The notes below the pieces were generated by a model. That model was not told the DNA's origin. It made no database searches and saw only the letters and a program-made list of their open reading frames with translations. A stretch of DNA of 64,000 nucleotides from positions 3,711 to 67,710 of the IMG/VR virus record IMGVR_UViG_3300038705_000018. One strand, written 5' to 3'. Positions 1 to 52,563 of the stretch are shown here, piece by piece (position 1 is the stretch's first letter; every line of letters starts with the position of its first letter). Both the position numbers and the translations under genes were made by a program. This DNA comes from a virus.

Positions 1-1
1 T

Positions 2-175
2 ACCATTGTGAGATATCAAGAGCGCCTAAAAGTTTACGATATTGAAGGCATTCATAAAAACGTTAACGTTAGCGGTAATATTGATATGTGGGATGAAAAA
101 GCTCATCAACTATTCATCGATGTTCTAAGCGAACTAAATGAACATGAAAATTATTTTGCTACTATTAATGCTTAA
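2..175 (+). CDS. 3' end of a gene truncated by the window edge (function unknown)
   Basis: Frame is open from nt 2 to TAA at 173-175 (...FIDVLSELNEHENYFATINA*). The RBS of the next gene follows directly. Confidence 0.45.
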   Translation, partial: TIVRYQERLKVYDIEGIHKNVNVSGNIDMWDEKAHQLFIDVLSELNEHENYFATINA

Positions 176-189
176 AGAGGAGGTTCGTC

Positions 190-591
190 ATGTCTAAAGC
201 ACCATTTCAACCTATAGTCACAAAACCTGGAAACACTTTAAATGACAAAGGTGTACAGATAAAAGGAACTAACGATTTTGGCCGTAATAGTGAGCCCGTT
301 AAGAAACAAGTTATTAAGCCTATTATCAATAAAGCTAAAGTGACTGCTCCTGAAAAGCCAGATCAACGTTTAGTTCCATCTAAAACGGCTAAAATTTCAC
401 CAGCTGTTCTATTAAAACTAAATACACTTAAACCATTTATAAAAGAACAAGAAAGTATGGATAAGGCATCGATTAACAGTATTATCGATATGCTTCTTGA
501 AAGCTATGTAAATACTAAGCTAACAACAAGACAATCTGAAGGTTATAAAGGGATGTACAAGCACCTTTATGAAATGTTGGAAAAGAAATAA
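190..591 (+). CDS. Small basic protein; possible plasmid-partition/centromere-binding adaptor (weak)
   Basis: RBS AAAGAGGAGG lies just upstream of ATG190. Lys/Pro-rich N-half, helical C-half. Tight linkage to the upstream gene. The family idea is from memory only. Confidence 0.5.
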   Translation: MSKAPFQPIVTKPGNTLNDKGVQIKGTNDFGRNSEPVKKQVIKPIINKAKVTAPEKPDQRLVPSKTAKISPAVLLKLNTLKPFIKEQESMDKASINSIIDMLLESYVNTKLTTRQSEGYKGMYKHLYEMLEKK

Positions 592-646
592 ACAACAAAT
601 ACAATTTTCCTAGTCTATAGAATAATTCTTAGCATTTTCAATCCTA

Positions 647-1633
647 ATGTTAATGGAGATGAATTTCATGGGAGTAATTACGAAAAATGGCGATAATATA
701 ATTAATTTCGATTTATTTATAGAAGAGTACGGTTGCATAAAAGTTGAATTTAAGCAAAAAGAAGGGGAAAGGTACTATTTATATGCTTTTCGTAACGATT
801 TATCTGAGTGGGATTTTAATAAAGGCGAATTAATTTTAGTGACCCACAATGAAGATAAAGTTAAAGAGATCTCCTCAAAAGTGCTAACTTTATATGTAGG
901 TGAATTCTTTTGTAAAGAGTGTTTTAGAAAAAAAGATATTGAAAAATTATCTAAGAAAGATAATACGAAATATTGGTGTCATAATTTTTGGAAACAAACC
1001 CCGAATCATACTAAAAAATTACTACAAGATGAAATTTTATATTCAATAGATGATATGGATTGGTCTATGGTAAAAAGTATAACTAATAATGATAAATCTT
1101 TTGTATTCTTTGGAATATGTTCAGATTTTTGCATGACTCGTGAAGAATTCAAAAATAATGATGTAATACAAGAAAAAATAAAGTTGATGGACGACATATG
1201 GGAAGAACTAATAACAGATGAATTAATGAATGGCCCTGAAAGTTTATTAGAAGATATATTATGCGACCATATATTCATCATTGAAGAAGGTATGTCTTTT
1301 ATAGAAAGACAATATAGAGTTGAAAATGGGATTATTGATATTATAGCGAAGGATGAAAATGGCACTAAATGTATTATTGAATTGAAGACGGTTGATGATG
1401 ATAAAAGTTTAGTGTGGCAATCTGCTTATTACCCATCCTGTTTCAATGAAGATGTTCGTATGATTACAATTGCTCCCAATTATTCTACTCGAATATATAA
1501 CGCTCTTAAAAATATAAACAATGTTGAAATGAAAGTTTTCGGAAAAGGTCCAAACGGGAAACTCGATATAAAAGAATTTGATCCAGGAGAATCTGTTTCG
1601 GAAATAACAGAGGAATTGCCAATTATCGTGTGA
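647..1633 (+). CDS. PD-(D/E)XK nuclease-like protein (NucS/DUF91-like C-terminal domain)
   Basis: C-terminal motif ERQYRVENGIIDIIAKDENGTKCIIELK (D...E-x-K core) then QSAYY. N-half is unassigned and Cys-containing. The start could be a downstream Met. Confidence 0.55.
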   Translation: MLMEMNFMGVITKNGDNIINFDLFIEEYGCIKVEFKQKEGERYYLYAFRNDLSEWDFNKGELILVTHNEDKVKEISSKVLTLYVGEFFCKECFRKKDIEKLSKKDNTKYWCHNFWKQTPNHTKKLLQDEILYSIDDMDWSMVKSITNNDKSFVFFGICSDFCMTREEFKNNDVIQEKIKLMDDIWEELITDELMNGPESLLEDILCDHIFIIEEGMSFIERQYRVENGIIDIIAKDENGTKCIIELKTVDDDKSLVWQSAYYPSCFNEDVRMITIAPNYSTRIYNALKNINNVEMKVFGKGPNGKLDIKEFDPGESVSEITEELPIIV

Positions 1634-1640
1634 ATGATTT

Positions 1641-1665
1641 AGCCCTACATATGTAGGGCTTTTTG
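1641..1665 (+). terminator. Rho-independent terminator
   Basis: agccctacat/atgtagggct hairpin followed by TTTTT. Confidence 0.8.
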
Positions 1666-1678
1666 TATAATCACTCTT

Positions 1679-1793
1679 AAGTAGAAAAGTATACTTTTCT
1701 ACTTTTGCGTAGTTTTATGCAAATCCTTTACCAGAACCACCACGGCTGTTTCTTCTTTTTTAATCCTGTGCTTCCACTCGTTCATTATGCGCT
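1679..1793 (-). pseudogene. Decayed, internally deleted copy of the 3' end and terminator of a MerR-like gene
   Basis: Aligns with 3466-3672: same 22-bp palindrome GTAGAAAAGTATACTTTTCTAC, ccaccacggct, gtgcttcca, ttcattatgcgct. About 85 bp of the intact copy is missing. Confidence 0.7.
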
Positions 1794-1884
1794 AAATGAA
1801 AGTATCCACAAAATAAAAATAACCCTAATCTATTAACTGTCCTGTATCAAATGAACAGTTCACTATAAATATGGGCTCTTTTTT

Positions 1885-2340
1885 TTAAAGTTCACCAATA
1901 TGGGCTTTTAATCCTACAATATCGAATACTTTTTTTATTTCATTTTTATCATTTGTATTAATGAAGCTCTCTTGTTCGTGTGAACATGAAACTAACCATT
2001 TTTCTCCCTTTTTAAAGAAAGATAAATCTTCCGGCAAATCTGGCTGTTCCCAACAATATAGTGAATTGGATAAGTCTTTCAAAACCTTTTTCGCATGAGT
2101 ATTCGCGTGATAGAAATAAACTTTTGCTGTTTGATTATCACCTAAAATAGTACTAGACCACTCTGATAGTTCTCTCATTTCAATCAATGAAAAGTCAAGT
2201 TTCTTTAAAATTGTATCATAAGAATCCAATGGCCCCATATCTTTCCTTAAAACTAAATGGAATGTATCACAAGTTTCAAAAGCTAAGTCTAATAAATCTA
2301 CGTACACTTGATCTTTTGGATTAGAATCAATAATTATCAT
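1885..2340 (-). CDS. Immunity-like protein downstream of the toxin-like gene
   Basis: RBS GGGAGGAAAAC before MIIIDS. Small acidic cytoplasmic protein with a PEDLSFF...SCSHEQE motif, 41 nt after the toxin-like ORF. Assignment by context. Confidence 0.4.
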   Translation of the reverse strand: MIIIDSNPKDQVYVDLLDLAFETCDTFHLVLRKDMGPLDSYDTILKKLDFSLIEMRELSEWSSTILGDNQTAKVYFYHANTHAKKVLKDLSNSLYCWEQPDLPEDLSFFKKGEKWLVSCSHEQESFINTNDKNEIKKVFDIVGLKAHIGEL

Positions 2341-2411
2341 TGTGTTTTCCTCCCTTTTAAAATACTCCATATCTTAACAATAAAGATATGGAGTATAAAA
2401 GTAATTATATT

Positions 2412-3203
2412 TTATCTAGGGCCACCATAGAAAGCATGGCAATTCATACGTACAGATTTACCTTGTTTTAAATAACTAACTGGATGATAATGATAATGTT
2501 TCCCACTACCATTCGCATCAATTTCTGGTCCAACAGCCTTTCCAATCATACTAGCCATTTTAGCAAGACTCTGCGCGTTACTTTGAGATGTAGACCACGT
2601 ATCCCCCCCACCTTGTAGATGAGTGATTGCACGTGTTGTATCCATACCATTTCCGATAAATAATCCTCCAGTACGCCTGATAGCTACGTAATGGGTTTTA
2701 GATTTAGAACGTTTAGCAAATTCTTTATAAGCAATATATGTCGATCCACCAATTGCAATAACAAGACCCGAAGCAGCAAGTGCTCTTAAAAGTTGTTGAG
2801 TAATTGCAACTCCTATAGGAATAGCGAAAGCTGCTGCTGCTCTAGACGGATCTGCTACTTTAGAAGAACTGACTGTGAACTTTTCTTCTGTTTCAATATC
2901 AGTGACAGTTGCTTCCACTTCTTCTGTAGTTACATTTTCAACTTCTAATTTATACTCTTTCCCAAGTTGCCCAACATCTTCAGACTTTTCATTAGTTTGT
3001 ACAGACATATCTAAAGTTTCTTTATCTACTTTTATTAACCCTTTAATCCCATCGATTTCTGTTTCTATTACTAGTTTATCATTATCATTAGTGATAATTT
3101 TATAATCTTCATTACTTACAGCATGAGTTTCCTTTTGAAATCCCAAAGTGAACACTAAGGTGAAGCATAACAATGCGAGAATACTTTTTTTTATAAATTT
3201 CAT
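2412..3203 (-). CDS. Secreted protein with a His-rich C-terminal toxin-like domain (family unassigned)
   Basis: Signal peptide MKFIKKSILALLCFTLVFTLGFQKETHA, acidic middle, hydrophobic segment. C-terminus GKHYHYHP...NCHAFYGGPR. Confidence 0.4.
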   Translation of the reverse strand: MKFIKKSILALLCFTLVFTLGFQKETHAVSNEDYKIITNDNDKLVIETEIDGIKGLIKVDKETLDMSVQTNEKSEDVGQLGKEYKLEVENVTTEEVEATVTDIETEEKFTVSSSKVADPSRAAAAFAIPIGVAITQQLLRALAASGLVIAIGGSTYIAYKEFAKRSKSKTHYVAIRRTGGLFIGNGMDTTRAITHLQGGGDTWSTSQSNAQSLAKMASMIGKAVGPEIDANGSGKHYHYHPVSYLKQGKSVRMNCHAFYGGPR

Positions 3204-3460
3204 CTACTAATCTCCCCTTCTTTCTACTTCCGTGCGCACATTCTAAAATATAATTGATCAGATTATATATATAATCATAGTATTAAAAGTAAAATATTTC
3301 TAGTATTGGAATTAAATAATTTATATGTTATCATTTATAATTTAATACAACACTTTACTATATTTACTATATTTATCCATTTTTTATTTATCGCGTTTCT
3401 CTATTAAAGTAAACTCTTCCTAACAAACGTTAAAGCATATTTTTAATTAAAAATATTTAC

Positions 3461-3491
3461 AAAAAAAGGTAGAAAAGTATACTTTTCTACC
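3461..3491 (-). terminator. Terminator of the MerR-like gene
   Basis: Perfect palindrome ggtagaaaagta/tacttttctacc at 3468-3491. The A-run at 3461-3467 gives a U-run on the minus strand. Confidence 0.75.
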
Positions 3492-3515
3492 TTTGCGTAA
3501 CTTGTATAAATGCTT

Positions 3516-4103
3516 TTACCAAAACCGCCACCACGGCTTCTTCTCTTTTGCAGCAGCAACCTCATACCGAAACTCCTGCATCATTCTCTTCGTATCCTGC
3601 ATCTCACGCAGCGTTTTCATAAGCGTCTCATCCCGTGCTTCCAATCGTTTTTCCACGCGTTCATTATGCGCTTCTACACTCGCTTTGATTTCCTCGTTAC
3701 TTTGCTTCGCCTGCTCACTTAATCGCTTCTCCATCGCTAACATGCTTTGATTCATTTCTTGCGCCATAACGCTGTACTGTTCCTGTAATTGTTGTTTAAT
3801 GTGGAATGGCACTAAGTCCGTTTCCTCAGCCTCTTCTTGAATCAGATCCGGATTAACCTTCTCTATTTGCTGCGCAATCATCTTAGCTGCCTTTTCTAGC
3901 GTCATACCGTCATGCTTGCTGATTTCAATTAATCTCTCAATAACCATAATATCGCCTTCTGAGTATTCCCGTCTGCCGCGCTTATCCTTCTTTACTGCGA
4001 ATCCCTCACGTGACAATACTTCCATGTACTTTCTAAGGGTGCTATCGGAAATTCCTATTCGTTTGTATACTTCACTAGCAGAATAAACAATTTCGTCCGT
4101 CAT
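3516..4103 (-). CDS. MerR-family HTH protein with coiled-coil C-terminus (excisionase/regulator-like)
   Basis: N-terminus YSASEVYKRIGISDSTLRKYMEVLSREGFAVKKDKRGRREYSEGDI is a typical MerR wing-HTH. Confidence 0.7.
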   Translation of the reverse strand: MTDEIVYSASEVYKRIGISDSTLRKYMEVLSREGFAVKKDKRGRREYSEGDIMVIERLIEISKHDGMTLEKAAKMIAQQIEKVNPDLIQEEAEETDLVPFHIKQQLQEQYSVMAQEMNQSMLAMEKRLSEQAKQSNEEIKASVEAHNERVEKRLEARDETLMKTLREMQDTKRMMQEFRYEVAAAKEKKPWWRFW

Positions 4104-4205
4104 AACGTCACAACACCTCCTAGTGAGAGTATTCCATGACAGTTAAGGAATTCCTGCAAATAAAAAAGCCCTGGTATATAGGGCTTAGTTTTTACCACAT
4201 GATAT

Positions 4206-4394
4206 TTAAGGCCATATGAGAATAAGAAATATAACAAAAGCAATTAGTAATATCCCACATCCCATTGTCGGTTGCCCCATTTGAGATCCGTACTTACTAG
4301 AAATTGAACCTGCAATTATAAGAAATACACCAGCTAATATCAAAAATAACATGGTGAAGATAACCAAATTCATCCCCCTCAAATTTTGATACAC
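4206..4394 (-). CDS. Small two-TM membrane protein
   Basis: 62 aa, almost entirely hydrophobic. Confidence 0.45.
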   Translation of the reverse strand: MYQNLRGMNLVIFTMLFLILAGVFLIIAGSISSKYGSQMGQPTMGCGILLIAFVIFLILIWP

Positions 4395-4436
4395 CCTTTA
4401 TAATTTATTTAATTCATATAAAGTTTATTAAAGCTT

Positions 4437-4925
4437 TTAAATAGCTTTAGCAATCTCAACAAGCAGCCTCATAAATAAAGGAATCATTTGAACAACTATA
4501 TAACCAATCCCTGCACGACTTATTAGTGAGAATCCCCGTTCCTGGCTACCTACCATAATGAACAACCCACCGCATAACGCTACAACGGATGCAATCGGAT
4601 AGGATACTGCTTTAATCAAGAAGATAACCGGTTCAAACGCATTTACAATACGATTGTATAACTGGCCATCTATATAATTTTTTATTGCCCCGTCATTGGA
4701 CTGCACATCTTTAAATACTTCATTCACGTCTGGATTATTACCATCAGCAAATACATGAGGAATATCTATAATATTGCTGAATATAATAGCACTACCGATC
4801 ACAATACTTATTCGCGCCGCCACGGGTGCGTATTTTTTTACTTTCTTTTTGAACAAGCTCCACTTTTTCTTTGCTCCATAGTTACCATCCATAAAATCTT
4901 TGATGCTCATTGTCTCAGTTGCCAT
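4437..4925 (-). CDS. Membrane protein (transfer-module associated)
   Basis: RBS AGGGAG precedes ATGGCA (MATETMSIKDF). Several TM segments. The longer track ORF overlaps the upstream gene. Confidence 0.5.
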   Translation of the reverse strand: MATETMSIKDFMDGNYGAKKKWSLFKKKVKKYAPVAARISIVIGSAIIFSNIIDIPHVFADGNNPDVNEVFKDVQSNDGAIKNYIDGQLYNRIVNAFEPVIFLIKAVSYPIASVVALCGGLFIMVGSQERGFSLISRAGIGYIVVQMIPLFMRLLVEIAKAI

Positions 4926-41247: not shown

Positions 41248-41403
41248 TTATCCCATTCCTGTCCCTGGGTCCATTCTAAGCATAATTTGAGTTTGAGCAT
41301 CCTTTGCTACTTGTTTAGGCTGCTCCTTTTGACCTTTAACAGGAGATACATATAATACTCCGACTAAAGCCAAAGTTGTTACTAAAGCTAGTACTTTTTT
41401 CAT
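41248..41403 (-). CDS. aimP: AimP-like secreted signalling pro-peptide (51 aa, not in track)
   Basis: ATGA overlap with the receptor stop. MKKVLALVTTLALVGVLYVSPV signal-like N-terminus. C-terminus ...MLRMDPGTGMG. Confidence 0.5.
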   Translation of the reverse strand: MKKVLALVTTLALVGVLYVSPVKGQKEQPKQVAKDAQTQIMLRMDPGTGMG

Positions 41404-42572
41404 TTAGCATCACCCTTGTATATTATACTATTTTTATTAATATCTACCAATATTTTTCGAGGTAAATAACTATAAAATTTACACCCTTGCGAGTAGAATA
41501 ACTCAATTGATTTTTCTAGTAATTTTCTATCTTCCAATGCCATTCCTAAATAACATAATTTCATTGGAGACAGACTACCATTCTCTTTTTCGTACTTTCT
41601 TAATATAGTGGCAGCTTTTTCTTTTTGTCCTGTTACTATATATAGAAGCGCTTTCTCGCCCACATCAAAAATTTGTAAATCATACATATCCTTTTGATGG
41701 ATTATTCTAATGTAAGACCTCATATTTAAAAACTCTTTTTTTCGGTTTTCTGCTTTCTCATAGGATAGTTGGTCTAGCATCTCAATCCCTTTATTTAAAT
41801 ACCATAAAGATTGTTCATAATTTTCAACGTATGATTCACCTAAATATCCTAATGCAGAAATTTTTAATAACCTTAGATAACCTAATTCATCATTAACATT
41901 CAATATACTATGGCATAGTTCTCTTGATTTTTCTATTTGCTCGTCCATTAGCAATGCATACGCATACCATTCCTTTACACGGCTACTGTATATATCTTTT
42001 ATAAATTGGCTAGGAAGTTCAGATATTTTTTCCTGTAATGTTTGTATATACCCATCTAAAAGTTTAAAATTCCTACAATCATACATAGAATATAATGTTA
42101 AAATATCAAACATTATTTTAGTTTCTTCATTTTTAAGAACTTTACTCTTTTTCCTACTCTCAGTCTCCGTTAAAAGTTTTTCAGCTGTAAAAAATTTCTT
42201 AGCTCTTAACCAAACGAGTTCATATATATATGCCCATTCGTAAGTTTTAGAGTTATTAGATTCAAAGCCTCTTTGAATCGCAATTCTAAGGAGTTCCAAA
42301 TCCCCTAAAGCATTTCCATACTCCATAGCTATTCTTAAATTCTTTTTACTTTTAGTTTTTTTACAAAATTCATGGATCATATAATTCTTTTCAAGCGGAT
42401 CTTCATATAATAATTCAACTAACTTTACTACATTTAAAAAATTCAATTCACTTTTCCCTGATAAATTCTTTGAAAACGCAGGGCCACTTATTCCAAGTTC
42501 TTTTGAAATACTCTCTTGGCTCTTTTTTTGAAAATCAATTTGATCAACAACTTTAAATAACCAATATTTCAT
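41400..42572 (-). CDS. aimR: AimR-like RNPP-family receptor (HTH + TPR)
   Basis: RBS AAGGAGGAG before MKYWLF. N-terminal HTH SQESISKELGISGPAFSKNLSG. TPR-like body. C-terminus resembles AimR. Confidence 0.65.
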   Translation of the reverse strand: MKYWLFKVVDQIDFQKKSQESISKELGISGPAFSKNLSGKSELNFLNVVKLVELLYEDPLEKNYMIHEFCKKTKSKKNLRIAMEYGNALGDLELLRIAIQRGFESNNSKTYEWAYIYELVWLRAKKFFTAEKLLTETESRKKSKVLKNEETKIMFDILTLYSMYDCRNFKLLDGYIQTLQEKISELPSQFIKDIYSSRVKEWYAYALLMDEQIEKSRELCHSILNVNDELGYLRLLKISALGYLGESYVENYEQSLWYLNKGIEMLDQLSYEKAENRKKEFLNMRSYIRIIHQKDMYDLQIFDVGEKALLYIVTGQKEKAATILRKYEKENGSLSPMKLCYLGMALEDRKLLEKSIELFYSQGCKFYSYLPRKILVDINKNSIIYKGDAK

Positions 42573-43050
42573 TTTGCTCCTCCTTGCCGGAACAAAAGAC
42601 ACGTAAACCCCATAAAGGAAAACGTGCCACCCTCAATCTATGGTGTGTTATAATTATATGTATAAGATCCGCGACAATGTTCCCTAGGGTAGTAGGGGCA
42701 GTGTAAGAGTGTTACCAGCACTACTTGCACCGTGGGTCTTTTTTACGTCCGTTTATTTTATTATTTTCATAATATCATATTTTTGCCAAAATTCAGTCGT
42801 GTGGTTATCAGAAAAATGTTGAGAAAGTTTGAAAATAGCTGTATATCAAGGTTTTCTTACGCTTTATTGAAAGGATATGCAATAGTGCATCTTTCTGTAT
42901 GAAGTACCTATATACATATTTTACTGTATTAACCATGAGAGATACCGCTCTCTTTTTTTATTTACTCTTTTTAAACTAGAACCTTTTTATACAACCTTCA
43001 TAATATATATGGGACAACCTTAAACTCTTTTTTGAGAGGAATGATTAGAT

Positions 43051-43720: not shown

Positions 43721-45418
43721 ATGTATATAGACACGATTGAAATAAGCAATTTTAGATCGATTGGAAGCAGCCCACCACTAAAACTAGATATTAGTGATAT
43801 TACCGTTCTGTCAGGAATTAATGATACAGGTAAAACTTCAGCCTTATTAGCCTCATTTATTGGTTTGAATAATGTTTCAACAAAAAATCAAGAATTATAT
43901 AAATTATTGGATGGAAGTAAACATCGTAAAGGCTATGCTTTAGACGAATCCGCACAAGCTATTAAGCCTACTTTCAAATGTACGGAAGAAGATGTAGAAA
44001 AAGTATGGGAATACATACAACATAAGGGAATTTTGAAATATATCTTGCAAGAATTAAGGAAAGAAGAGATTAATATTGAGGAAGATACGGTTAAAGAATT
44101 TATTTCAGAAGCTGTAATCACACTAAAAATCCCACTGGATAGTCGACGATTCTCCTTTTACGATAGTTGTGTTGATCTTGTACTTTGGAATAAATGTGTT
44201 GAGAACTTCTTTAAATACGAAAATATTTTAGAATTGTCAAACTATTTACATCGAGCAATTAATACTGCTGCTGCATTAGAGACATCTATAAACAACATGA
44301 ATTGTTTATATGTTCCGGGTGTTACAAGAAGTAATGATCAAATTTTATTCAGAGAAAAAGATCGAAAATCGCAATTAATAGCCTTTTTCAAAGGGATTTG
44401 TTCGGAACAAGGGAAAACTTCCGGGAAATACGACGCTTTTAAGGAATATTTTAAAATTTTACTCCCTGAATTGGTAAGGTTTGAAATAAATATTGTTCAA
44501 GATAATGAAGAATCTGAGGATATATTTTTAACTTGGAACCATAATGACTGTGAAAAAGAACAACCATTATCCCGAAGTGGTGATGGAATCTATAATACTA
44601 TATTTCTTATGGCCAAGGTGCTAAATAATTTTAATGCAATGAATATTGTATTTATTGATGAACCTGAAATAGGATTACATCCATTGCTACAGCAAAGATT
44701 TATTAAGTTGCTTAGAAAACTTTCTCGTGAATACTCAATAAAATGGGTGTTAGCAACGCATTCTCCCTTTATATTACAGTCTTTAAAAGATACAGAGAAA
44801 CTATATTTAATTAAGCATGATGGTCACCAAACAAATTGTCTGGAAATTGATATCGCTAATAAAGATGTTGTTTTTAGTACTTTAGGTGCTTATTTGCCTT
44901 TAGCTCTTTCTGCCACAGGTGTAATATTTGTTGAGGGACAAACTGAGGCGACCGTTTTAACCATACTATTAGCTAAAGTTGGTTTAAACATAGAAAGGGA
45001 ACGAATAATAATTATCCCTCTTGGTGGTGAAAATCTCTTTCAGATTTCTGCAAAAGATTTAAAAAAATTACATGAAAAAAGTATGGTCATTATAGATAGT
45101 GATTTATCTAAACCTGAAAAAGAAGGAGGAAATATAAAAAAAATAAAATTAGATTATCAAGCTGAATGTGAAGAAAATAATGTTGAATTCTTAATGATTA
45201 AGGACTATAGAACATTAGAAAATATGTATCCAAAGGATGTTTTAGCGGAAGTTTTAGGTAAAGAAGTTGAAACTCTTGATTATGGAAACTTTGATGAGGT
45301 ACCTGGAATTCGTAATAAAATCAAGGTAGGGGAAGAAGTCGCAAATAAAATGTCTAAAGAAGAAGCTGAGCGTTTTCCTTTGATTAAAGAAATACAAAAA
45401 TGGTGGAATGAGAAATAA
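43721..45418 (+). CDS. OLD-family nuclease (ABC-type ATPase + TOPRIM)
   Basis: Walker A GINDTGKT, Walker B VFIDEPEIGLHP, ATHSP. TOPRIM motifs FVEGQTE and VIIDSD. Confidence 0.85.
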   Translation: MYIDTIEISNFRSIGSSPPLKLDISDITVLSGINDTGKTSALLASFIGLNNVSTKNQELYKLLDGSKHRKGYALDESAQAIKPTFKCTEEDVEKVWEYIQHKGILKYILQELRKEEINIEEDTVKEFISEAVITLKIPLDSRRFSFYDSCVDLVLWNKCVENFFKYENILELSNYLHRAINTAAALETSINNMNCLYVPGVTRSNDQILFREKDRKSQLIAFFKGICSEQGKTSGKYDAFKEYFKILLPELVRFEINIVQDNEESEDIFLTWNHNDCEKEQPLSRSGDGIYNTIFLMAKVLNNFNAMNIVFIDEPEIGLHPLLQQRFIKLLRKLSREYSIKWVLATHSPFILQSLKDTEKLYLIKHDGHQTNCLEIDIANKDVVFSTLGAYLPLALSATGVIFVEGQTEATVLTILLAKVGLNIERERIIIIPLGGENLFQISAKDLKKLHEKSMVIIDSDLSKPEKEGGNIKKIKLDYQAECEENNVEFLMIKDYRTLENMYPKDVLAEVLGKEVETLDYGNFDEVPGIRNKIKVGEEVANKMSKEEAERFPLIKEIQKWWNEK

Positions 45419-45422
45419 TATT

Positions 45423-45500
45423 TGGATGGGAGTCCAATACATATTATTAAAATTAAAGTGGTTCAAGTCGCAGGAAGGCACCTTAGGGTGTCTTTTTTTA
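45423..45500 (+). repeat. Interspersed ~80-nt repeat ending in a terminator (copy A)
   Basis: TGGATGGGAGTCCAATACATATTATTAAAATTAAAGTGGTTCAAGTCGCAGGAAGGCACCTTAGGGTGTCTTTTTTT, just after the OLD-gene stop. Confidence 0.8.
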
Positions 45501-45693
45501 TGATTTAACACAATCATAATCACATTTTGAGGTACTTCTTGTTTTTAGACCTATCATTTTACCTTCCTTTATAAGTCCTATTTTAGTGCTGAATTTTAAA
45601 ATATAAATTCATTTTCAATAACTTTATTTCTACAGGTAATATATAATTTGAATATTGATACATTAAAAACAATATAAAAAGGAGTGTATATCG

Positions 45694-46992
45694 TTGGAAT
45701 CATTAAGACGATTTGCTAAGGCTGCATTATATTACTGTAATAGGAATAACAAATGGGATGTAGATATGCATAGTGATAAGCCCTTGAAAACTTTATTAGA
45801 AAAAATATATGAACACCCTAGATTTAGTGCTATTTTTGAAGTTGAAATAGCAGAAAGTATAATTAATTCGTATCTCGAAGATATACACATACAACAGCAA
45901 ACAAACTATGGTGATCAAGATGCAGATCAATTTTTAGAATATATATATGAAAATCTTTATATAAATATCAAAGAAAGATGGATCATTTTCCCTTTAAAAG
46001 GAGCATTTCTTTCAAAAACAGTAAAGTATAAAGATTTTATTTTCATTTCAGGGGATAGAAATGAAAAATTAAATACATTAAAAAAAATATTTAAAGTGTC
46101 ATTGAATGAAACGAAAACAAGAATGCAGCATATTGAGAGAAAATCATCTTCTTTTTTACAACATCCATTAGTAGCTATTAGAGTAAAACATCAATATAGT
46201 TATGTTTTTTATAGGGCAAGACATATAGGACTTTATACAAATTCTATTTTACATGCTATATACTGGGGGAATGTGTATCCTAAATACAAATTACCTCTTT
46301 TCAGTAATATACATCAAAATGAACATATTAATATTCTCTTAACATGTGGTACTACAGAATATGAATTCAACAACGCACCGCTTAATTTTAATGCAAATTG
46401 TTTTATAAACTTAGACTGGCTCCTAGAAAAGAAATATATAAAGTTATTGGATCTAATATATCAAGAAATGGTTATGAAAACTCATAACCCGGTCTCCCAA
46501 AAATTTTTGAACGGTATAAATTTTTTTAAAAGAGCTATAGAGGTTGAAAATAGTAATGATATAACTCAAGGATTAGGAACACCTTTATTGTTGTTAACAA
46601 TTGCTAGTGAAAATATTCTATTAAAACATAAAGATTCTAAGCGAGACAGATTACGTGTATTATTCCCTTGTTTGGTTAATTGGGATGTCATGGATAAGAA
46701 TGAATTTAGTTCATTAATAAGTCAAATTTATACTTGGAGATCAGAATTTGTACATGCGGGGATAGAGCTGTATAAGGATTATAATGAAGATTTTTCATCA
46801 GGACCTAACACAAAACAATATATAAATTTTAAAGTAGCGGTATCAAAATTATTATGTAGATCTCCTTATTTCATAAGGCTAGTTAACAATCGTTTTGTTA
46901 AACAGGATTCAATAAGACATATTGATCTATGGAATACATATTTAGATAATCATTGGAACAGAGGTAAGAGTTTATTAAATAAGGTGGAATAG
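45694..46992 (+). CDS. HEPN-domain protein (ApeA-like)
   Basis: TTG start with RBS AAGGAG. C-terminal Rx4H motif in IYTWRSEFVHAG. N-terminal region unassigned. Confidence 0.5.
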   Translation: MESLRRFAKAALYYCNRNNKWDVDMHSDKPLKTLLEKIYEHPRFSAIFEVEIAESIINSYLEDIHIQQQTNYGDQDADQFLEYIYENLYINIKERWIIFPLKGAFLSKTVKYKDFIFISGDRNEKLNTLKKIFKVSLNETKTRMQHIERKSSSFLQHPLVAIRVKHQYSYVFYRARHIGLYTNSILHAIYWGNVYPKYKLPLFSNIHQNEHINILLTCGTTEYEFNNAPLNFNANCFINLDWLLEKKYIKLLDLIYQEMVMKTHNPVSQKFLNGINFFKRAIEVENSNDITQGLGTPLLLLTIASENILLKHKDSKRDRLRVLFPCLVNWDVMDKNEFSSLISQIYTWRSEFVHAGIELYKDYNEDFSSGPNTKQYINFKVAVSKLLCRSPYFIRLVNNRFVKQDSIRHIDLWNTYLDNHWNRGKSLLNKVE

Positions 46993-47235: not shown

Positions 47236-47264
47236 GAAAAGCTCTCTAATTGAGAGCTTTTTTA
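47236..47264. terminator. Bidirectional terminator between convergent genes
   Basis: aaaagctctc-taatt-gagagctttt, flanked by A-runs and T-runs. Confidence 0.7.
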
Positions 47265-47339: not shown

Positions 47340-48212
47340 CTATTCGAAAATTTGTAAGTTTATTAAATCATCAGGTCCCTCTAATTGAGGTTCTTGAGCG
47401 TAATTTGAGCGCTCTAAAACCATATTTCTTACTAAGAAATATAATTCTTTATAAGTGATTGCACTTTGGCTTCCCATCACGTCAGTTAATGCTTTAGTAA
47501 AACGGCCATATGTACCTTCATCATATGATACTTGATCTGCTTTACATCCTGCTAATAAAATATGATTCGGTCCTGAAAAAGATGAAAAGTCTTTTCTAAT
47601 AGGTTCAAAACCACTCATAATCATTTTTATGTCTTGAATGGTTTGGGTTGGAGGAATGTAACGAGGTTTAATACTTGATAAATCTCTTCTTTCAACGTTA
47701 TTAAAACTATTAATTATTGCTTTTACATCCTCAATAGTTCGCGCTTGCGGAATAGAATAATAATTACCAAAGTTCCTTGTACCAGTTCCAGAATGACAAC
47801 TATCCAAAATAACCACAAATTTTACACCTTTAGGTATGTTAGATAGTATTGTATTAATTTCATCATCTCTAATAAGATTAGATTGGTCAGCAAGTGCATC
47901 GATGGGTACAATAGCTTCATCCAACATATCTTCCTCATCAATTGGTGGCAAATCCGCTGTCTGTGTTCCGTGTCCCGAGTATGTAAATAATCCAATATCC
48001 CCAGGTTCTAGTTGATTAACTAGCCATTCCAGTCCTTTGAGAATATTTTTTTTAGTCGCTACTTCCTCAATAAGTAATTGTATATTAGACTGATTAAAAT
48101 CAAATTTTTTAACTAGCGTATTTAAGATCATTGATGCATCGTTTATACAGCCCCCTAACTCATATTTACTGCCTCGATAATTTATACCTGTAATTAACGC
48201 TAATTTCTTCAC
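47340..48212 (-). CDS. Caspase-family (C14, metacaspase-like) peptidase
   Basis: GTG start with RBS AGGAGGAG. Catalytic His in YSGHGTQ, catalytic Cys in ILDSCHSGTG. Confidence 0.85.
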   Translation of the reverse strand: MKKLALITGINYRGSKYELGGCINDASMILNTLVKKFDFNQSNIQLLIEEVATKKNILKGLEWLVNQLEPGDIGLFTYSGHGTQTADLPPIDEEDMLDEAIVPIDALADQSNLIRDDEINTILSNIPKGVKFVVILDSCHSGTGTRNFGNYYSIPQARTIEDVKAIINSFNNVERRDLSSIKPRYIPPTQTIQDIKMIMSGFEPIRKDFSSFSGPNHILLAGCKADQVSYDEGTYGRFTKALTDVMGSQSAITYKELYFLVRNMVLERSNYAQEPQLEGPDDLINLQIFE

Positions 48213-48238
48213 TTTACTCCTCCTATTACTAATTTATA

Positions 48239-48268
48239 AAGTGGACAGAAAATCATTTCTGTCCACTT
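48239..48268 (-). promoter_or_regulatory. 13-bp hairpin between the small gene and the caspase gene (possible attenuator)
   Basis: aagtggacagaaa/tttctgtccactt. Only a weak U-tract follows on the minus strand. Confidence 0.4.
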
Positions 48269-48369
48269 ATAAAAAAACACTTAAATTATATCTATAGAGC
48301 TTCTATAGACATCCAACTATTTGTAGCTTATTCTTCGATTACAATTGCCTTACTCTGAACTTAACATCA

Positions 48370-48594
48370 TCAAAAAAGTTTAATATTAGCATCAATAATC
48401 TCCCCAGCGGTTGTTCCAATTGCCGCTCCTACAGGTCCACCAATTACACCACCAATTGCACCAGTAATTGGTGCCGTAGGAATACTTTCAGTACCTGGAA
48501 TACCAAAAAAACGTGCCTGAGTTTGTAGGTCACCTTCAACTAAAAGTAACCCTTTTCCATTGATACTTAGTTTTCCAACAACTCTTCCATTCAT
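48370..48594 (-). CDS. 74-aa glycine-zipper protein upstream of the caspase
   Basis: RBS AAGGAGGTGAAAG. C-half PITGAIGGVIGGPVGAAIGTTAG has repeated GxxxG. N-half is beta-like. Single Arg in the linker (QTQARFFG). Confidence 0.6.
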   Translation of the reverse strand: MNGRVVGKLSINGKGLLLVEGDLQTQARFFGIPGTESIPTAPITGAIGGVIGGPVGAAIGTTAGEIIDANIKLF

Positions 48595-48987
48595 CTTCTT
48601 TCACCTCCTTCCACAACAGTATTTACAATTTAATTTAACTAATACATTTTTTTACTATTTTGTTATTTTTAAATAATTATAAATTTTCTTTATAAGAATA
48701 ATTGGATGATATAAGGTTATTCTGATAGATTAAATTCTTTATATACATATAATTTTAAAATAATATATATTGATTAATAGTTAATAATATTTAATCTAAA
48801 AATCTAATCATATATTAACTGATTAAACATTGACTACATTGATGAGTTCTATAAAGAACCCTTTAAAAAGGTATTCAGTCCATTTTTAACATGATTGAAT
48901 AAAGAATTTAATATGAAAACAGTAACAAAAGAAAAATGGGATTTACAAGTTGAAGAAAACCACCTTAAGGTGTCTTTATTATTACTC

Positions 48988-49182: not shown

Positions 49183-49680
49183 TTGAAGCAGAAGCTGATT
49201 GTTATAATATGTAGTTTAATTTTAATCCCTCTTGTGATTATGGGATGGAATAAGTATTTAGATTACAAATATGAAAAGGAACGAGAAAAAGTCCATGCCG
49301 ACTACGAAAAAGAACTAGTAGAACTGGAAAAGGAACAAACCAAACAGCTAGCGAAAGAAGAAAAAAGACTAGAAGAGCTAGAAGAACAGAATCGTAATGC
49401 AGAAGCTAAGCAGAAACGTATGACTGACGCTTTCAACAGCTTACGCCAAGGTATGTCCTACGAAGAAGTTGCAGCAGCGTTCGGTACAGAAGGTGATTTA
49501 AAAAACCAAGGTACCTATAGTAATGAATGGAAAGACTATAAAAAAAATCACCCTGCGTATTTTTGGAATTATGACAGCATCTACAATATAGTTTGTAATT
49601 TTAGCTATAACAAACTAACGTCATGTAAGAAACAAGAACGTGTTCGAGTAAAAGTGAATGGAACTTGGTATGAAAATTAA
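49183..49680 (+). CDS. Membrane-anchored coiled-coil protein with a DUF3862-like C-terminal domain
   Basis: TTG start with RBS AAAGGGGA. N-terminal TM, EK-rich coil, then GMSYEEVAAAFGTEG. Confidence 0.55.
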   Translation: MKQKLIVIICSLILIPLVIMGWNKYLDYKYEKEREKVHADYEKELVELEKEQTKQLAKEEKRLEELEEQNRNAEAKQKRMTDAFNSLRQGMSYEEVAAAFGTEGDLKNQGTYSNEWKDYKKNHPAYFWNYDSIYNIVCNFSYNKLTSCKKQERVRVKVNGTWYEN

Positions 49681-50869: not shown

Positions 50870-50945
50870 TTCGACATAATATGACAATATAATAATGTTT
50901 GTTTTGATAAGATTGTCCAGAAATATTACATTTTATATATCTTGG
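50870..50945 (+). promoter_or_regulatory. Conserved upstream module, copy 2
   Basis: TTCGACATAATATGACAAT ... CCAGAAATATTACATTTTA. Preceded by the terminator gagagtcatgactctc plus a T-run. Confidence 0.5.
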
Positions 50946-50957
50946 AGGAATTCAATT

Positions 50958-51596
50958 ATGAGCAAAAAATTATTAATGGCTTTAGCATGCAGCGTGTTAC
51001 TTATGGGATTGGCTGCTTGTGGTTCAAATGATAAAGCAAGTACATCAGAAGAACCAAAACAAGAAACTAAAAAAGAAGATGAGCAAAAACAGGAAGAGGA
51101 ACAAAAGAAAATAGAAGAACAGAAAAAAGCCGAAGAACAAAAACAAGCTGAGGAACAAAAGAAGTTAGAAGAACAGAAAAAAGCCGAAGAACAAAAACAA
51201 GCTGAAGAGCAACAGAAGTTAGAAGAACAGAAAAAGGCTGAAGAACAAAAAGCTGAAGAAAAAGCTAAACAAGAAGAGCAGCAACGTCAAGAAGCTGAGG
51301 CGCAACGACAGGCTGAAGAAAAAACGAAGCAAGAACAACAACGTCAAAAGCAGGAACAAGTGCAAAAACAAAGAGAAGTAAATCAAAAGAAGACAGAGAA
51401 AGAAGCACGTGAGGAACAAGAAAGTTTAGAATATGCAAAAAGGAGAGCTCAATCATTTGAGGATAAAGAACGAGAAAAAATGAGTTGTGATGAAGCGAAA
51501 AATGTTCTTGAACAATTAAAGAATGGCGAACAGAATCCAGCAACAAAAGAGCATATTATTAAGTATCAAGAAAAAGTAAATATGTGTAGCAAGTAA
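50958..51596 (+). CDS. Lipoprotein with an EEQKK-type repeat region
   Basis: RBS GGAGGAA. Lipobox LAACGS. Tandem EEQKKAEEQKQA repeats, with DNA repeats at about 51100-51240. Confidence 0.7.
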   Translation: MSKKLLMALACSVLLMGLAACGSNDKASTSEEPKQETKKEDEQKQEEEQKKIEEQKKAEEQKQAEEQKKLEEQKKAEEQKQAEEQQKLEEQKKAEEQKAEEKAKQEEQQRQEAEAQRQAEEKTKQEQQRQKQEQVQKQREVNQKKTEKEAREEQESLEYAKRRAQSFEDKEREKMSCDEAKNVLEQLKNGEQNPATKEHIIKYQEKVNMCSK

Positions 51597-51705: not shown

Positions 51706-51900
51706 TGTATAAAATAGCCCGACTATTTCCGTAGATGTGCTAAATAGTAACCCCTATTACCATTTATTTAAATATCTCCAAGTCAATATTATATAATTTC
51801 GATATATTTAAATTATATTTTAATTATATAAGTAGTGCAAAAGACGTTAGGCTTTGTTATCATGTTCTACGAATTAAAATTATTTCAAGGAGGTTTTTTT

Positions 51901-52563
51901 GTGTTTGATATATTAAAAAAACAATGTCGATTCAATAAGATGTCGGCAATATCGTTAGGGATTTTTGTGCTTTATATGATTTTAAAGCAATTTATCGCAC
52001 TAGTTTATTTCATTAGTGATGAACAGTTTAGCGGGATGAGCATTTCGTTTGACGCAATTGATTTGTTACTTGTTCTAATAATTTATTTTTATTATCGTAG
52101 ATCTAAAGAGCCTTTTACAAATCAAAATAATTTTACGATGAGTTTGCCAAAAAGCTTACTTTTAGGTCTAGTACTAACTGTAGTATGTAAATTCCTCCCG
52201 CTGTTACTAGCAGATTTTATAAGTTTTCAGTCATCCAATCAAGTTGAACTAGAAAGCCAAGTAACGTTACCAATTTTAGTCTTCGCATTTTCTGTTGCTC
52301 TGGTAGCACCCATTGGTGAAGAAATTGTCCATCGTGGTGTTATACAGCATGGAATTTTTAAAAATTCCTGGTTAGGTGTATTTGTTTCTTCAGCTATTTT
52401 TGCAGGTTTACATGTTAGTCTTCTTTCTTTAGAAGCAATTCCGTATTTCCTTCTGGGAATTGGTTTAGGTTGTACTTATAAGTTAACCGGGCGTTTATAT
52501 GTGGGAATTATAATGCACATGATTAATAATTCACTAGCAGTGATTGCTATTTACTATTTTTAA
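51901..52563 (+). CDS. CPBP-family intramembrane protease (CAAX/Abi)
   Basis: GTG start after AAGGAGG. Motifs GEEIVHRG and HMINNS. Multiple TM segments. Confidence 0.8.
   Translation: MFDILKKQCRFNKMSAISLGIFVLYMILKQFIALVYFISDEQFSGMSISFDAIDLLLVLIIYFYYRRSKEPFTNQNNFTMSLPKSLLLGLVLTVVCKFLPLLLADFISFQSSNQVELESQVTLPILVFAFSVALVAPIGEEIVHRGVIQHGIFKNSWLGVFVSSAIFAGLHVSLLSLEAIPYFLLGIGLGCTYKLTGRLYVGIIMHMINNSLAVIAIYYF

Follow-up and report, generated by a model that had tools for sequence, protein, structure and literature searches.

A gene for a small precursor-like peptide and the gene of a stand-alone metacaspase make up a genuine two-gene module that is conserved, has a cis element conserved along with it and had escaped annotation; the first product is probably a substrate of the second. 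The pair is located in a 64,000-nucleotide stretch of viral DNA (positions 3,711 to 67,710 of IMG/VR virus record IMGVR_UViG_3300038705_000018), which is referred to as the window at its full length. Both genes lie on the minus strand, the gene of the 74-residue peptide 157 bp upstream of the caspase gene. The preliminary description of this DNA had read a co-oriented minus-strand pair, with a 74-residue gene bearing a strong ribosome-binding site upstream of a C14 peptidase gene, and the open reading frames (ORFs) and the Shine-Dalgarno sequence AAGGAGGTG confirm this. The elements of the module are the following:

48370 to 48594 (stop codon included), minus strand: gene of the 74-residue precursor peptide, from the ORF list, a member of the leader/core peptide family.
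48602 to 48610, minus strand: Shine-Dalgarno sequence AAGGAGGTG of the 74-residue gene, read from the sequence, 8 nt before the ATG.
48511 to 48594, minus strand: leader or pro-region, residues 1-28, MNGRVVGKLSINGKGLLLVEGDLQTQAR, the conserved block of the family alignment, modelled as a hairpin by AlphaFold2.
48373 to 48510, minus strand: variable C-terminal part, residues 29-74, hypervariable across the family.
48239 to 48268, minus strand: conserved inverted repeat or stem-loop, AAGTGGACAGAAA-TGAT-TTTCTGTCCACTT, with a 13-bp stem, ~15 nt before the ribosome-binding site of the caspase gene.
48217 to 48225, minus strand: Shine-Dalgarno sequence TAGGAGGAG of the caspase gene, read from the sequence, preceding its GTG start.
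47340 to 48212, minus strand: gene of the 290-residue stand-alone metacaspase (C14), from Pfam, alignment, PDB profile, AlphaFold2 and Foldseek.
47237 to 47261, minus strand: terminator-like hairpin closing the two-gene unit 3' of the caspase gene, from a terminator scan.

The 290-residue protein is a genuine metacaspase-type enzyme. The Pfam model Peptidase_C14 (PF00656) matches residues 2-278 with an E-value of 6e-34 and there is no second domain, while the YSGHG motif with His81 (codon 47970-47972) and the DSCHSG motif with Cys139 (codon 47796-47798, both on the minus strand) are invariant in 33 aligned homologues. Pfam and the alignment therefore agree with the initial view of a bare C14 domain that has an intact His/Cys dyad and no sensor. 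When the profile of the 33-homologue alignment was compared with the PDB, yeast Yca1 came first (3.5e-53), followed by AtMC4, AtMC9 and TbMCA2. Furthermore, the AlphaFold2 model of the caspase (predicted local distance difference test score, pLDDT, of 88) was subjected to the Foldseek comparison with the PDB that had been proposed at the outset, and its best structural relatives are all metacaspases (AtMC4 at 5.7e-22, AtMC9 also at ~1e-21). In PADLOC-DB v2 the protein matches the generic 'caspase' model only (2.5e-19).

Metacaspases cleave their substrates after Arg or Lys, and on the strength of this family knowledge the same specificity is a well-founded expectation for the window caspase. 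In TbMCA2 the S1 pocket is formed by Cys92, Asp95, Ser156 and Asp211 (PMC4357240). The caspase carries C22, D25, S79 and D137 at these positions, of which C22, D25 and D137 are nearly invariant or invariant among its homologues; the mapping follows from alignment offsets and motif identity with Yca1, with no bound-substrate structure behind it. In the AlphaFold2 model the N-terminus is the first strand of the fold, with no signal peptide, and a disordered loop at residues 141-153, straight after the catalytic Cys, carries the widely conserved Arg146. In addition, the homologue alignment shows a conserved (K/R)R-x-h-P-P motif at Arg184, and Arg146 and Arg184 might both be candidate autoprocessing sites.

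Direct searches with the 74-residue protein were of little help. A word-indexed search returned only the identical protein and spurious Gly-rich repeats of giant proteins, an exhaustive HMMER search of 1.84 billion representatives likewise gave the identical protein and spurious Gly-rich repeats only, and the AlphaFold2 model, in which the hairpin alone is modelled, was unusable for a fold search. Even when E-values up to 10 were admitted, neither Pfam nor NCBIfam had a family that matched the protein or 10 of its relatives. Since nothing beyond the identical sequence was obtained in this way, the family was sought in the DNA that precedes caspase homologues at 45-71% identity. On a megaplasmid of Bacillus sp. 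ZJS3 two small ORFs precede a caspase at 57% identity, and in B. thuringiensis one small ORF precedes a caspase at 56% identity. At their N-termini these products and the window peptide have the block (G)KVVGKIxLNGKxLLLVE in common, after which comes an Arg.

The first small hidden Markov models (HMMs) were trained on five peptides, from the window, ZJS3, B. thuringiensis and B. toyonensis, and recovered several peptides on which they had not been trained: three around a single caspase on another B. thuringiensis contig (L099), a 47-residue peptide between two tandem caspase genes (L100, 1212-3876), a 54-residue peptide of B. velezensis whose gene adjoins the 3' side of a holin-endolysin cassette of a prophage (L101), a third copy in ZJS3 and N12 that is rich in Cys and is encoded next to a C92 papain-like gene (L089/L096), and a C-terminal fragment at a contig edge (L104). 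L100 also encodes a divergent 137-residue protein with a weakly leader-like N-terminus (E=0.08-0.12). A profile search of protein databases gave four other proteins, three of them training sequences or near-identical to these; the one new member, a 65-residue B. toyonensis protein (P0129), adjoins a C14 gene, and so does P0127, on a contig new to the analysis.

The initial proposal had made much depend on a conserved synteny of the small gene and the C14 gene, and such a synteny exists: all significant peptide-HMM matches in the 2.04 Mb scanned lie 0-910 bp from a C14 gene, and the pairing is seen in about nine divergent lineages. The leaders are 30-50% identical where the paired caspases are 45-71% identical. 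The HMMs gave no match in 78 loci of distant caspases (<=37% identity), nor in 150 unrelated loci that had been collected as chance hairpin matches and served as a negative control. Similarly, a screen of 80 caspase-homologue loci for nearby Gly-zipper ORFs yielded none that is real, the few candidates being off-frame ORFs in GC-rich DNA, and caspase homologues at <=37% identity have no Gly-zipper peptide ORF nearby. The family is rare, as a tblastn search of plasmids and phages with the consensus leader matched the ZJS3 plasmid alone; none of Pfam, NCBIfam, PHROGs and PADLOC includes it, and its genes are often unannotated. In P. polymyxa a caspase homologue at 45% identity has a comparable arrangement of a 63-residue ORF, a 14-bp hairpin and the caspase gene beside a serine recombinase; the HMM does not recognise the leader of this ORF, and all that it repeats of the family is the motif R|GLDIKV.

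The leader of the family comprises ~20 conserved residues, GKVVGKIxLNGKQLLLVE, which form a predicted beta-hairpin. AlphaFold2 run on five sequences places strands at residues 4-11 and 14-20 (pLDDT ~64) and falls below 50 after residue 25, so that a separate, beta-hairpin-like N-terminal half, as first described, agrees with both the model and the conserved block. An Arg follows the invariant Glu of the leader by 6-9 residues in all 11 peptides, at +8 in 8 of them, and is preceded by a polar and then a small residue (QAR, NAR, NTR, NSR, HNR...). In the window peptide the leader ends at this conserved Arg28 (codon 48511-48513). The position that had been predicted as the cleavage site is thus conserved at the end of a conserved leader, although Arg28 is not the sole Arg of the peptide, as had been stated, since R4 is a second one. 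Good Shine-Dalgarno sequences are found at every copy of the family, with GGAGGTG-like sites 5' of the homologous peptide genes.

The cores, that is the parts after the Arg, are hypervariable, with 46 residues in the window and 8-39 in the siblings, and neutral to acidic. An alternating h-D-h-(N/K)-h-D-h-F motif closes many of the members, in the window peptide as IIDANIKLF, and very short amphipathic-strand cores such as FLDINFNF occur. The B. toyonensis core is Gly-rich and non-periodic, and the L104 and L101 cores are rich in Gly and Ser. The glycine zipper of the window peptide covers residues 45-64 (48403-48462), with a run of five Gly at i+4 (G48-G52-G56-G60-G64) and six GxxxG pairs in the core. 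Core shuffles match the five-Gly run in 0.5% and the GxxxG pair count in 0.06% of cases, and the Gly periodicity first noted in the C-terminal half is therefore non-random. Its description as a membrane-inserting zipper holds in part, in that the zipper is present in the window copy; over 19 residues its hydropathy reaches 1.44 at best, a borderline value for a transmembrane helix, and the zipper is not a trait of the family. Two observations concern a further gene: a C92 (YiiX/YaeF-like permuted papain) gene recurs beside the caspases in L089, L090, L096, L091 and L098, and just upstream of it L089 (6038-6911) and L090 encode a leader-bearing peptide with the core SFFKDKFKLCGCIDPTECCC, truncated in the L096 copy.

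The 157-nt spacer between the two genes folds at -36.3 kcal/mol (z = -3.7). The 13-bp hairpin that had been noticed between the genes is the stem-loop at 48239-48268, and it is conserved in relatives: its sequence (AAGTGGACA...TGTCCACTT; TATAAAGTGGACA...TGTCCACTTTA) is kept in the window, L089, L090, L091, L094, L095, L096 and L100, while the distal stem and the loop vary and L100 has a paired C>T/G>A change. GGAGGA of the caspase Shine-Dalgarno sequence is invariant across the aligned intergenic regions. The stem-loop occurs once in the window, against none expected by chance. An Rfam scan of 40-53 kb of the window gave no match, and metagenome and viral collections scanned for the hairpin gave 150 matches, all of them chance ones with no peptide or caspase nearby, except the identical IMG/VR copy. 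The 13-bp stem failed the terminator scan for want of the required T-run. Probably, the stem-loop attenuates transcription, so that the peptide is made in large excess over the protease.

The module is carried by Bacillus plasmids and prophages. L094/L095 represent an apparently complete 5.8-kb Mob_Pre/RepL plasmid of B. toyonensis whose only cargo is a 65-residue Gly-rich peptide of the family, the caspase and a MerR-like DUF3967 protein. The window is prophage over ~1-42.6 kb, with a replisome organiser, a Sak annealing protein and a large tail protein. An arbitrium module at 41248-42602 on the minus strand marks the prophage end, with a 400-residue AimR (NCBIfam 9e-110) and, after it, a 51-residue signal-peptide ORF ending ...MDPGTGMG that is a likely candidate for AimP. 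These are followed by a phage-associated 153-residue gene, an OLD gene, a gene of 432 residues, the pair and a gene of 165 residues. The two protein genes flanking the pair are:

45694 to 46992, plus strand: 432-residue protein with no detectable family, convergent with the caspase gene and always found beside it in the B. cereus copies.
49183 to 49680, plus strand: 165-residue membrane-anchored BLIP/DUF3862-like protein, divergent from the pair, constant only in near-identical B. cereus copies.

The OLD gene (43721-45418, plus strand) encodes a stand-alone OLD-family ATPase with a TOPRIM nuclease that matches the PADLOC models AriA, Old and GajA; domain and PADLOC models thus support the convergence of the pair with an OLD gene that had been pointed out earlier. 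No Gabija, PARIS or retron partner gene is visible beside it. The ~95-nt non-coding stretch after it (45413-45507) shares 92-93% identity with the Bacillus phages 0105phi7-2, PfNC7401 and PfIS075, is the sole part of 43-49.2 kb common to sequenced phages, and has no Rfam match. The 432-residue protein matches nothing in Pfam, NCBIfam, PADLOC, PHROGs or PDB sequences, and its original label as HEPN could not be verified, a WRSEFVH motif (R-x4-H) being all that it offers. It is probably not part of the module and was dropped as such, since it is absent from other peptide-caspase loci, and a link of the 165-residue protein to the module is unproven. In PADLOC neither of them nor the peptide has a match, and none of the three hits a toxin-antitoxin or defence model. 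Further along, a lipoprotein-like ORF at 50895-51596 (plus strand) consists largely of EEQKK-type charged repeats, and a CPBP/Rce1-like intramembrane protease is encoded at 51835-52563 (plus strand), ~3.2 kb from the peptide gene. The latter family is often tied to bacteriocin immunity, and the gene is not seen beside the module in other contigs.

The identical 74-residue protein is encoded on 15 contigs, and a C14 gene always follows. In the 8 places shown the order is 165 residues, 74 residues, C14, 432 residues, while the outer flanks differ (AimR, a HinfI restriction-modification system or sortase genes), and IMG/VR places the pair within a predicted provirus. The pair is therefore carried as cargo by prophages of the B. 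cereus group, in an accessory region that varies between them.

How might such a pair work? Since a conserved leader, a basic residue at its end, an adjacent protease of the Arg/Lys type and a conserved junction element come together, it seems rather likely that the small protein is the cognate substrate of the protease and is cut after Arg28. Beyond this, we tentatively favour a pro-peptide and processing protease with a membrane-active product, leaning towards self-targeting. We infer cleavage and its position, membrane activity, trigger and target cell along the following lines. The cassette of precursor and processing protease would be spread on mobile elements of Bacillaceae, and the sensor-less metacaspase would recognise the N-terminal beta-hairpin leader of the 74-residue product and cut it after Arg28 (QTQAR|FF). 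The freed 46-residue glycine-zipper peptide, mildly hydrophobic and acidic, may then self-associate in or on a membrane. This could be the producer's own membrane, in which case the pair would act as a protease-gated suicide or abortive-infection toxin with the logic of the EACC1-caspase two-gene conflict system (Kaur et al. 2020, PMC7159879; Evans et al. 2025 preprint, PMC12642450). The zymogen of the metacaspase would serve as the switch, perhaps by way of Ca2+ or of autoprocessing at the conserved loop arginines. Self-targeting is favoured because the layout is EACC1-like, no exporter or immunity gene is seen in any locus examined, the protease is cytoplasmic, the module is the sole cargo of a plasmid, and defence genes adjoin it.

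Several observations weigh against this proposal. The presumed effector part is not conserved, and in the shortest core it amounts to the 8 residues FLDINFNF. A periodic Gly zipper is found in the window and ZJS3/N12 peptides only, and that of ZJS3 is strongly acidic, not hydrophobic. The two-Cys and five-Cys cores (L099, L089) resemble secreted peptide natural products, and several different peptides occur per locus, three in L099 and three in L089/L096. The AlphaFold2 model of the C-terminal half of the window peptide is uninformative (pLDDT <50), and a sensor domain is missing from the protease. No family peptide lies near six close homologues of the caspase (L001, L002, L092, L093, L098 and L103), of which L098 and L103 sit in clusters for ribosomally synthesised and post-translationally modified peptides (RiPPs), each with its own precursors; such maturase neighbours suggest a constitutive leader peptidase rather than a triggered switch. 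The glycine zipper is weakened as the basis of a pore-forming effector, as sibling cores of 8-39 residues lack it, and the idea of a pore applies to the window copy and a few relatives, not to the whole family. Of the protease-released pore peptide originally put forward, the synteny, the Arg site and the metacaspase remain, while the zipper is not conserved and a bacteriocin-like alternative fits about equally well.

According to this alternative, which had been mentioned at the outset and which is doubtful but comes close behind the favoured reading, the cores are bacteriocin- or RiPP-like peptides aimed at other cells, and in the metacaspase one would have a leader peptidase of a new kind. 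A transporter encoded elsewhere, or lysis on prophage induction, would set the cores free to attack competitors. A leader with a hypervariable core and several distinct precursors per locus speak for it, and this pattern fits it about as well as the gasdermin analogy. The paired-Cys cores are typical of extracellular peptides. A stem-loop between structural and processing genes is classical in bacteriocin operons, and one is found here between the two genes of the pair. That plasmids and prophages carry the module points in the same direction, as does the B. velezensis pair, which directly follows holin and endolysin genes.

Sister caspases are also found beside enzymes of peptide maturation. 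In L098 (Priestia megaterium, 1-4600) a radical SAM/SPASM maturase (TIGR04463-like) and three tandem precursors ending PHRPR-GSGFCLINF form a cluster divergent from the gene pair of the caspase and a C92 papain-like protein, and the whole looks like an undescribed RiPP cluster with the metacaspase as candidate leader peptidase. The leaders of these precursors, KVEKLSDKELKLILPEG, resemble the family leader by eye, and as this likeness is not significant by HMM no kinship is claimed. In L103 (1779-4274), a chromosomal locus, a 92-residue precursor with a Thr-rich core and a LanL/LanKC-like lyase-kinase without a cyclase domain are accompanied by the caspase homologue 22 bp downstream. Against the bacteriocin-like reading, no exporter or immunity gene is present in roughly ten contexts, the 5.8-kb plasmid included, and the window and most other loci show no modifying enzyme either; the window has no core-modifying enzyme although its peptide has the leader/core layout. 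The protease has no signal peptide, so that the active peptide would be made inside the producer, and the cores are neutral to acidic, not cationic. A double-glycine leader with an ABC exporter had been named as the sign of an ordinary bacteriocin, and neither was seen in any locus examined; the family peptides likewise match no bacteriocin or RiPP precursor model.

It is unlikely that the pair is instead of a toxin-antitoxin kind, with a toxic metacaspase and the small protein as a pseudo-substrate inhibitor, whose leader hairpin and Arg loop would occupy the active site and whose loss or degradation would unleash the protease. The small gene does come first, and with an attenuating stem-loop after it the small protein would be made in excess; the leader and the residues around the Arg are the parts that are conserved, as a protease-binding element needs, while the rest varies freely. 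Moreover, the module is the only cargo of a small plasmid and lies at prophage ends, places where addiction and abortive-infection modules are common. In addition, an orthocaspase acting on a toxin-antitoxin module has been reported (PMC7935541). However, divergent peptides per protease, Gly-zipper or Cys-rich tails and relatives in RiPP clusters are unexpected of antitoxins, no toxin-antitoxin or defence model matches the peptide, the 432-residue or the 165-residue protein, and bare metacaspase homologues are widespread without such a partner.

A signal of damage or lysis, in which a Ca2+-activated metacaspase cuts cytosolic propeptides after Arg upon injury or lysis of the cell and neighbours sense the short C-terminal peptides, is very unlikely. 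AtMC4 and AtMC9 are the best structural matches of the caspase, the precursors lack signal peptides, several cores are pheromone-sized (8-23 residues), and the host prophages already use peptide signalling, with AimR/AimP in the window and Rap-Phr in L101. On the other hand, the pair has no receptor gene linked to it, known pheromones of Firmicutes do not resemble the 46-residue Gly-zipper core, and the reading is inferential throughout. It is a distinctly improbable, if broader, thought that Bacillus phages and plasmids carry a counterpart of the plant metacaspase-propeptide danger signal, in which a metacaspase activated by Ca2+ or damage would, upon membrane injury or lysis, set free strain-specific variable peptides that reach neighbouring cells as alarms or weapons. 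Finally, that the small ORFs are unrelated short genes or non-genes preceding the caspase by chance is already disfavoured and hardly credible: the window peptide has no homologue in whole-sequence searches and six close caspase homologues have no family peptide, but a strong ribosome-binding site at every copy, leaders conserved at 30-50% identity, a distance that is always <=910 bp from a C14 gene and a conserved junction hairpin speak against it.

Protease-gated small toxins such as EACC1, Pepco and the gasdermins have recently been shown to be a major logic of bacterial immunity, with proteases that carry sensor domains. The module of the window, a 74-residue propeptide and a bare metacaspase able to travel alone on a 5.8-kb plasmid, would be about the smallest imaginable version of it, and one must ask how an enzyme of this kind becomes active without a sensor. 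The substrates of bacterial metacaspases are almost unknown, and the pair offers a genetically linked candidate with a predicted scissile bond. If the bacteriocin or RiPP reading is true, the family represents a new leader family and a new protease class in the biosynthesis of peptide natural products, and its hypervariable cores are worth mining. If the danger-signal reading is true, C14 metacaspases are a previously unrecognised class of leader peptidases for ribosomal peptides.

Among known systems, the plant metacaspase AtMC4 (structures 6w8r/6w8s) cuts PROPEP1, which lacks a signal peptide, after Arg and frees its C-terminal peptide. The window pair is similar in its metacaspase, of which AtMC4 is the best structural match, in its predicted Arg site and in a propeptide without signal peptide, whereas the plant system is eukaryotic, its enzyme and substrate genes are unlinked, and its product is a receptor ligand. 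In Microcystis the orthocaspase MaOC1 adjoins a type II toxin-antitoxin module (PMC7935541). It shares with the window pair a prokaryotic Arg-specific caspase homologue acting on a small neighbour-encoded protein, an action that is predicted for the window, but its substrate is the antitoxin of a recognisable downstream pair, and no recognisable toxin-antitoxin family is present here.

Leader-peptide bacteriocins and RiPPs, with proteases such as LanP, C39 of ABC exporters and class III AplP/FlaP, resemble the family in that a variable core follows a conserved leader, that there are multiple precursors, that the structural gene is followed by a stem-loop and adjoins a protease gene, and that maturases are present, for the family in the sister loci. 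They differ in that the window has no exporter, immunity gene, modifying enzyme or GG motif and the cores are acidic or neutral; unlike in class II bacteriocins, the window leader ends in Arg, and the loci examined contain no ABC transporter or C39 domain. A C14 metacaspase was not found as leader peptidase in the literature searched, and full-text searches gave nothing pertinent on glycine zippers paired with a metacaspase, on precursors or leaders associated with Peptidase_C14, or on RiPP leader peptides in connection with the caspase family. The proposed arrangement is also that of the bacterial gasdermins, a protease beside a latent membrane-permeabilising protein that is freed by removal of an inhibitory piece. 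However, the partner has no gasdermin fold or domain and 74 residues with no Pfam match, as opposed to ~240 or more, its inhibitory piece would be N-terminal instead of C-terminal, and gasdermin proteases carry sensor or repeat domains.

The nearest precedent is EACC1, a small protein encoded 5' of a caspase that removes its N-terminal beta-sheet fragment, after which the C-terminal fragment with its Gly-rich transmembrane segment permeabilises membranes, as has been tested experimentally (PMC12642450, PMC7159879). Both systems consist of a small non-enzymatic 5' gene and a 3' caspase-superfamily gene on the same strand, and both small proteins have an N-terminal beta element, a central segment of small or Gly residues and C-terminal residues resembling a beta-strand. 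The removal of an inhibitory N-terminal piece from a membrane-active C-terminal one, proposed for the window pair, would be the same logic. The differences are considerable: the peptides have no Pfam or NCBIfam match to EACC1, the presence of an EACC1 model in those libraries being unconfirmed, and the window caspase reaches 28 bits against the model of EACC1-associated caspases (NF047832), whose cutoff is 140. The window protease is bare, whereas EACC1 caspases are extended at the C-terminus by Avs, DGR, DnaK or other domains; EACC1 is modelled as being cut after Asp49, against a conserved Arg in the window family; EACC1 is the constant component of its system, against a hypervariable C-terminal part; it has ~115 residues instead of 74, and it is found mostly in actinobacteria and other multicellular bacteria, not on Bacillaceae mobile elements. 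A single transmembrane helix with a central patch of small or Gly residues is a strongly conserved trait of EACC1; the window peptide has a Gly zipper with a hydropathy of only 1.44, a segment absent from most family members. The initial remark that the pair is no named system is right insofar as it matches no catalogued system, but overlooked the EACC1-caspase precedent, and although the module is not a demonstrable member of that system, it resembles it in its logic.

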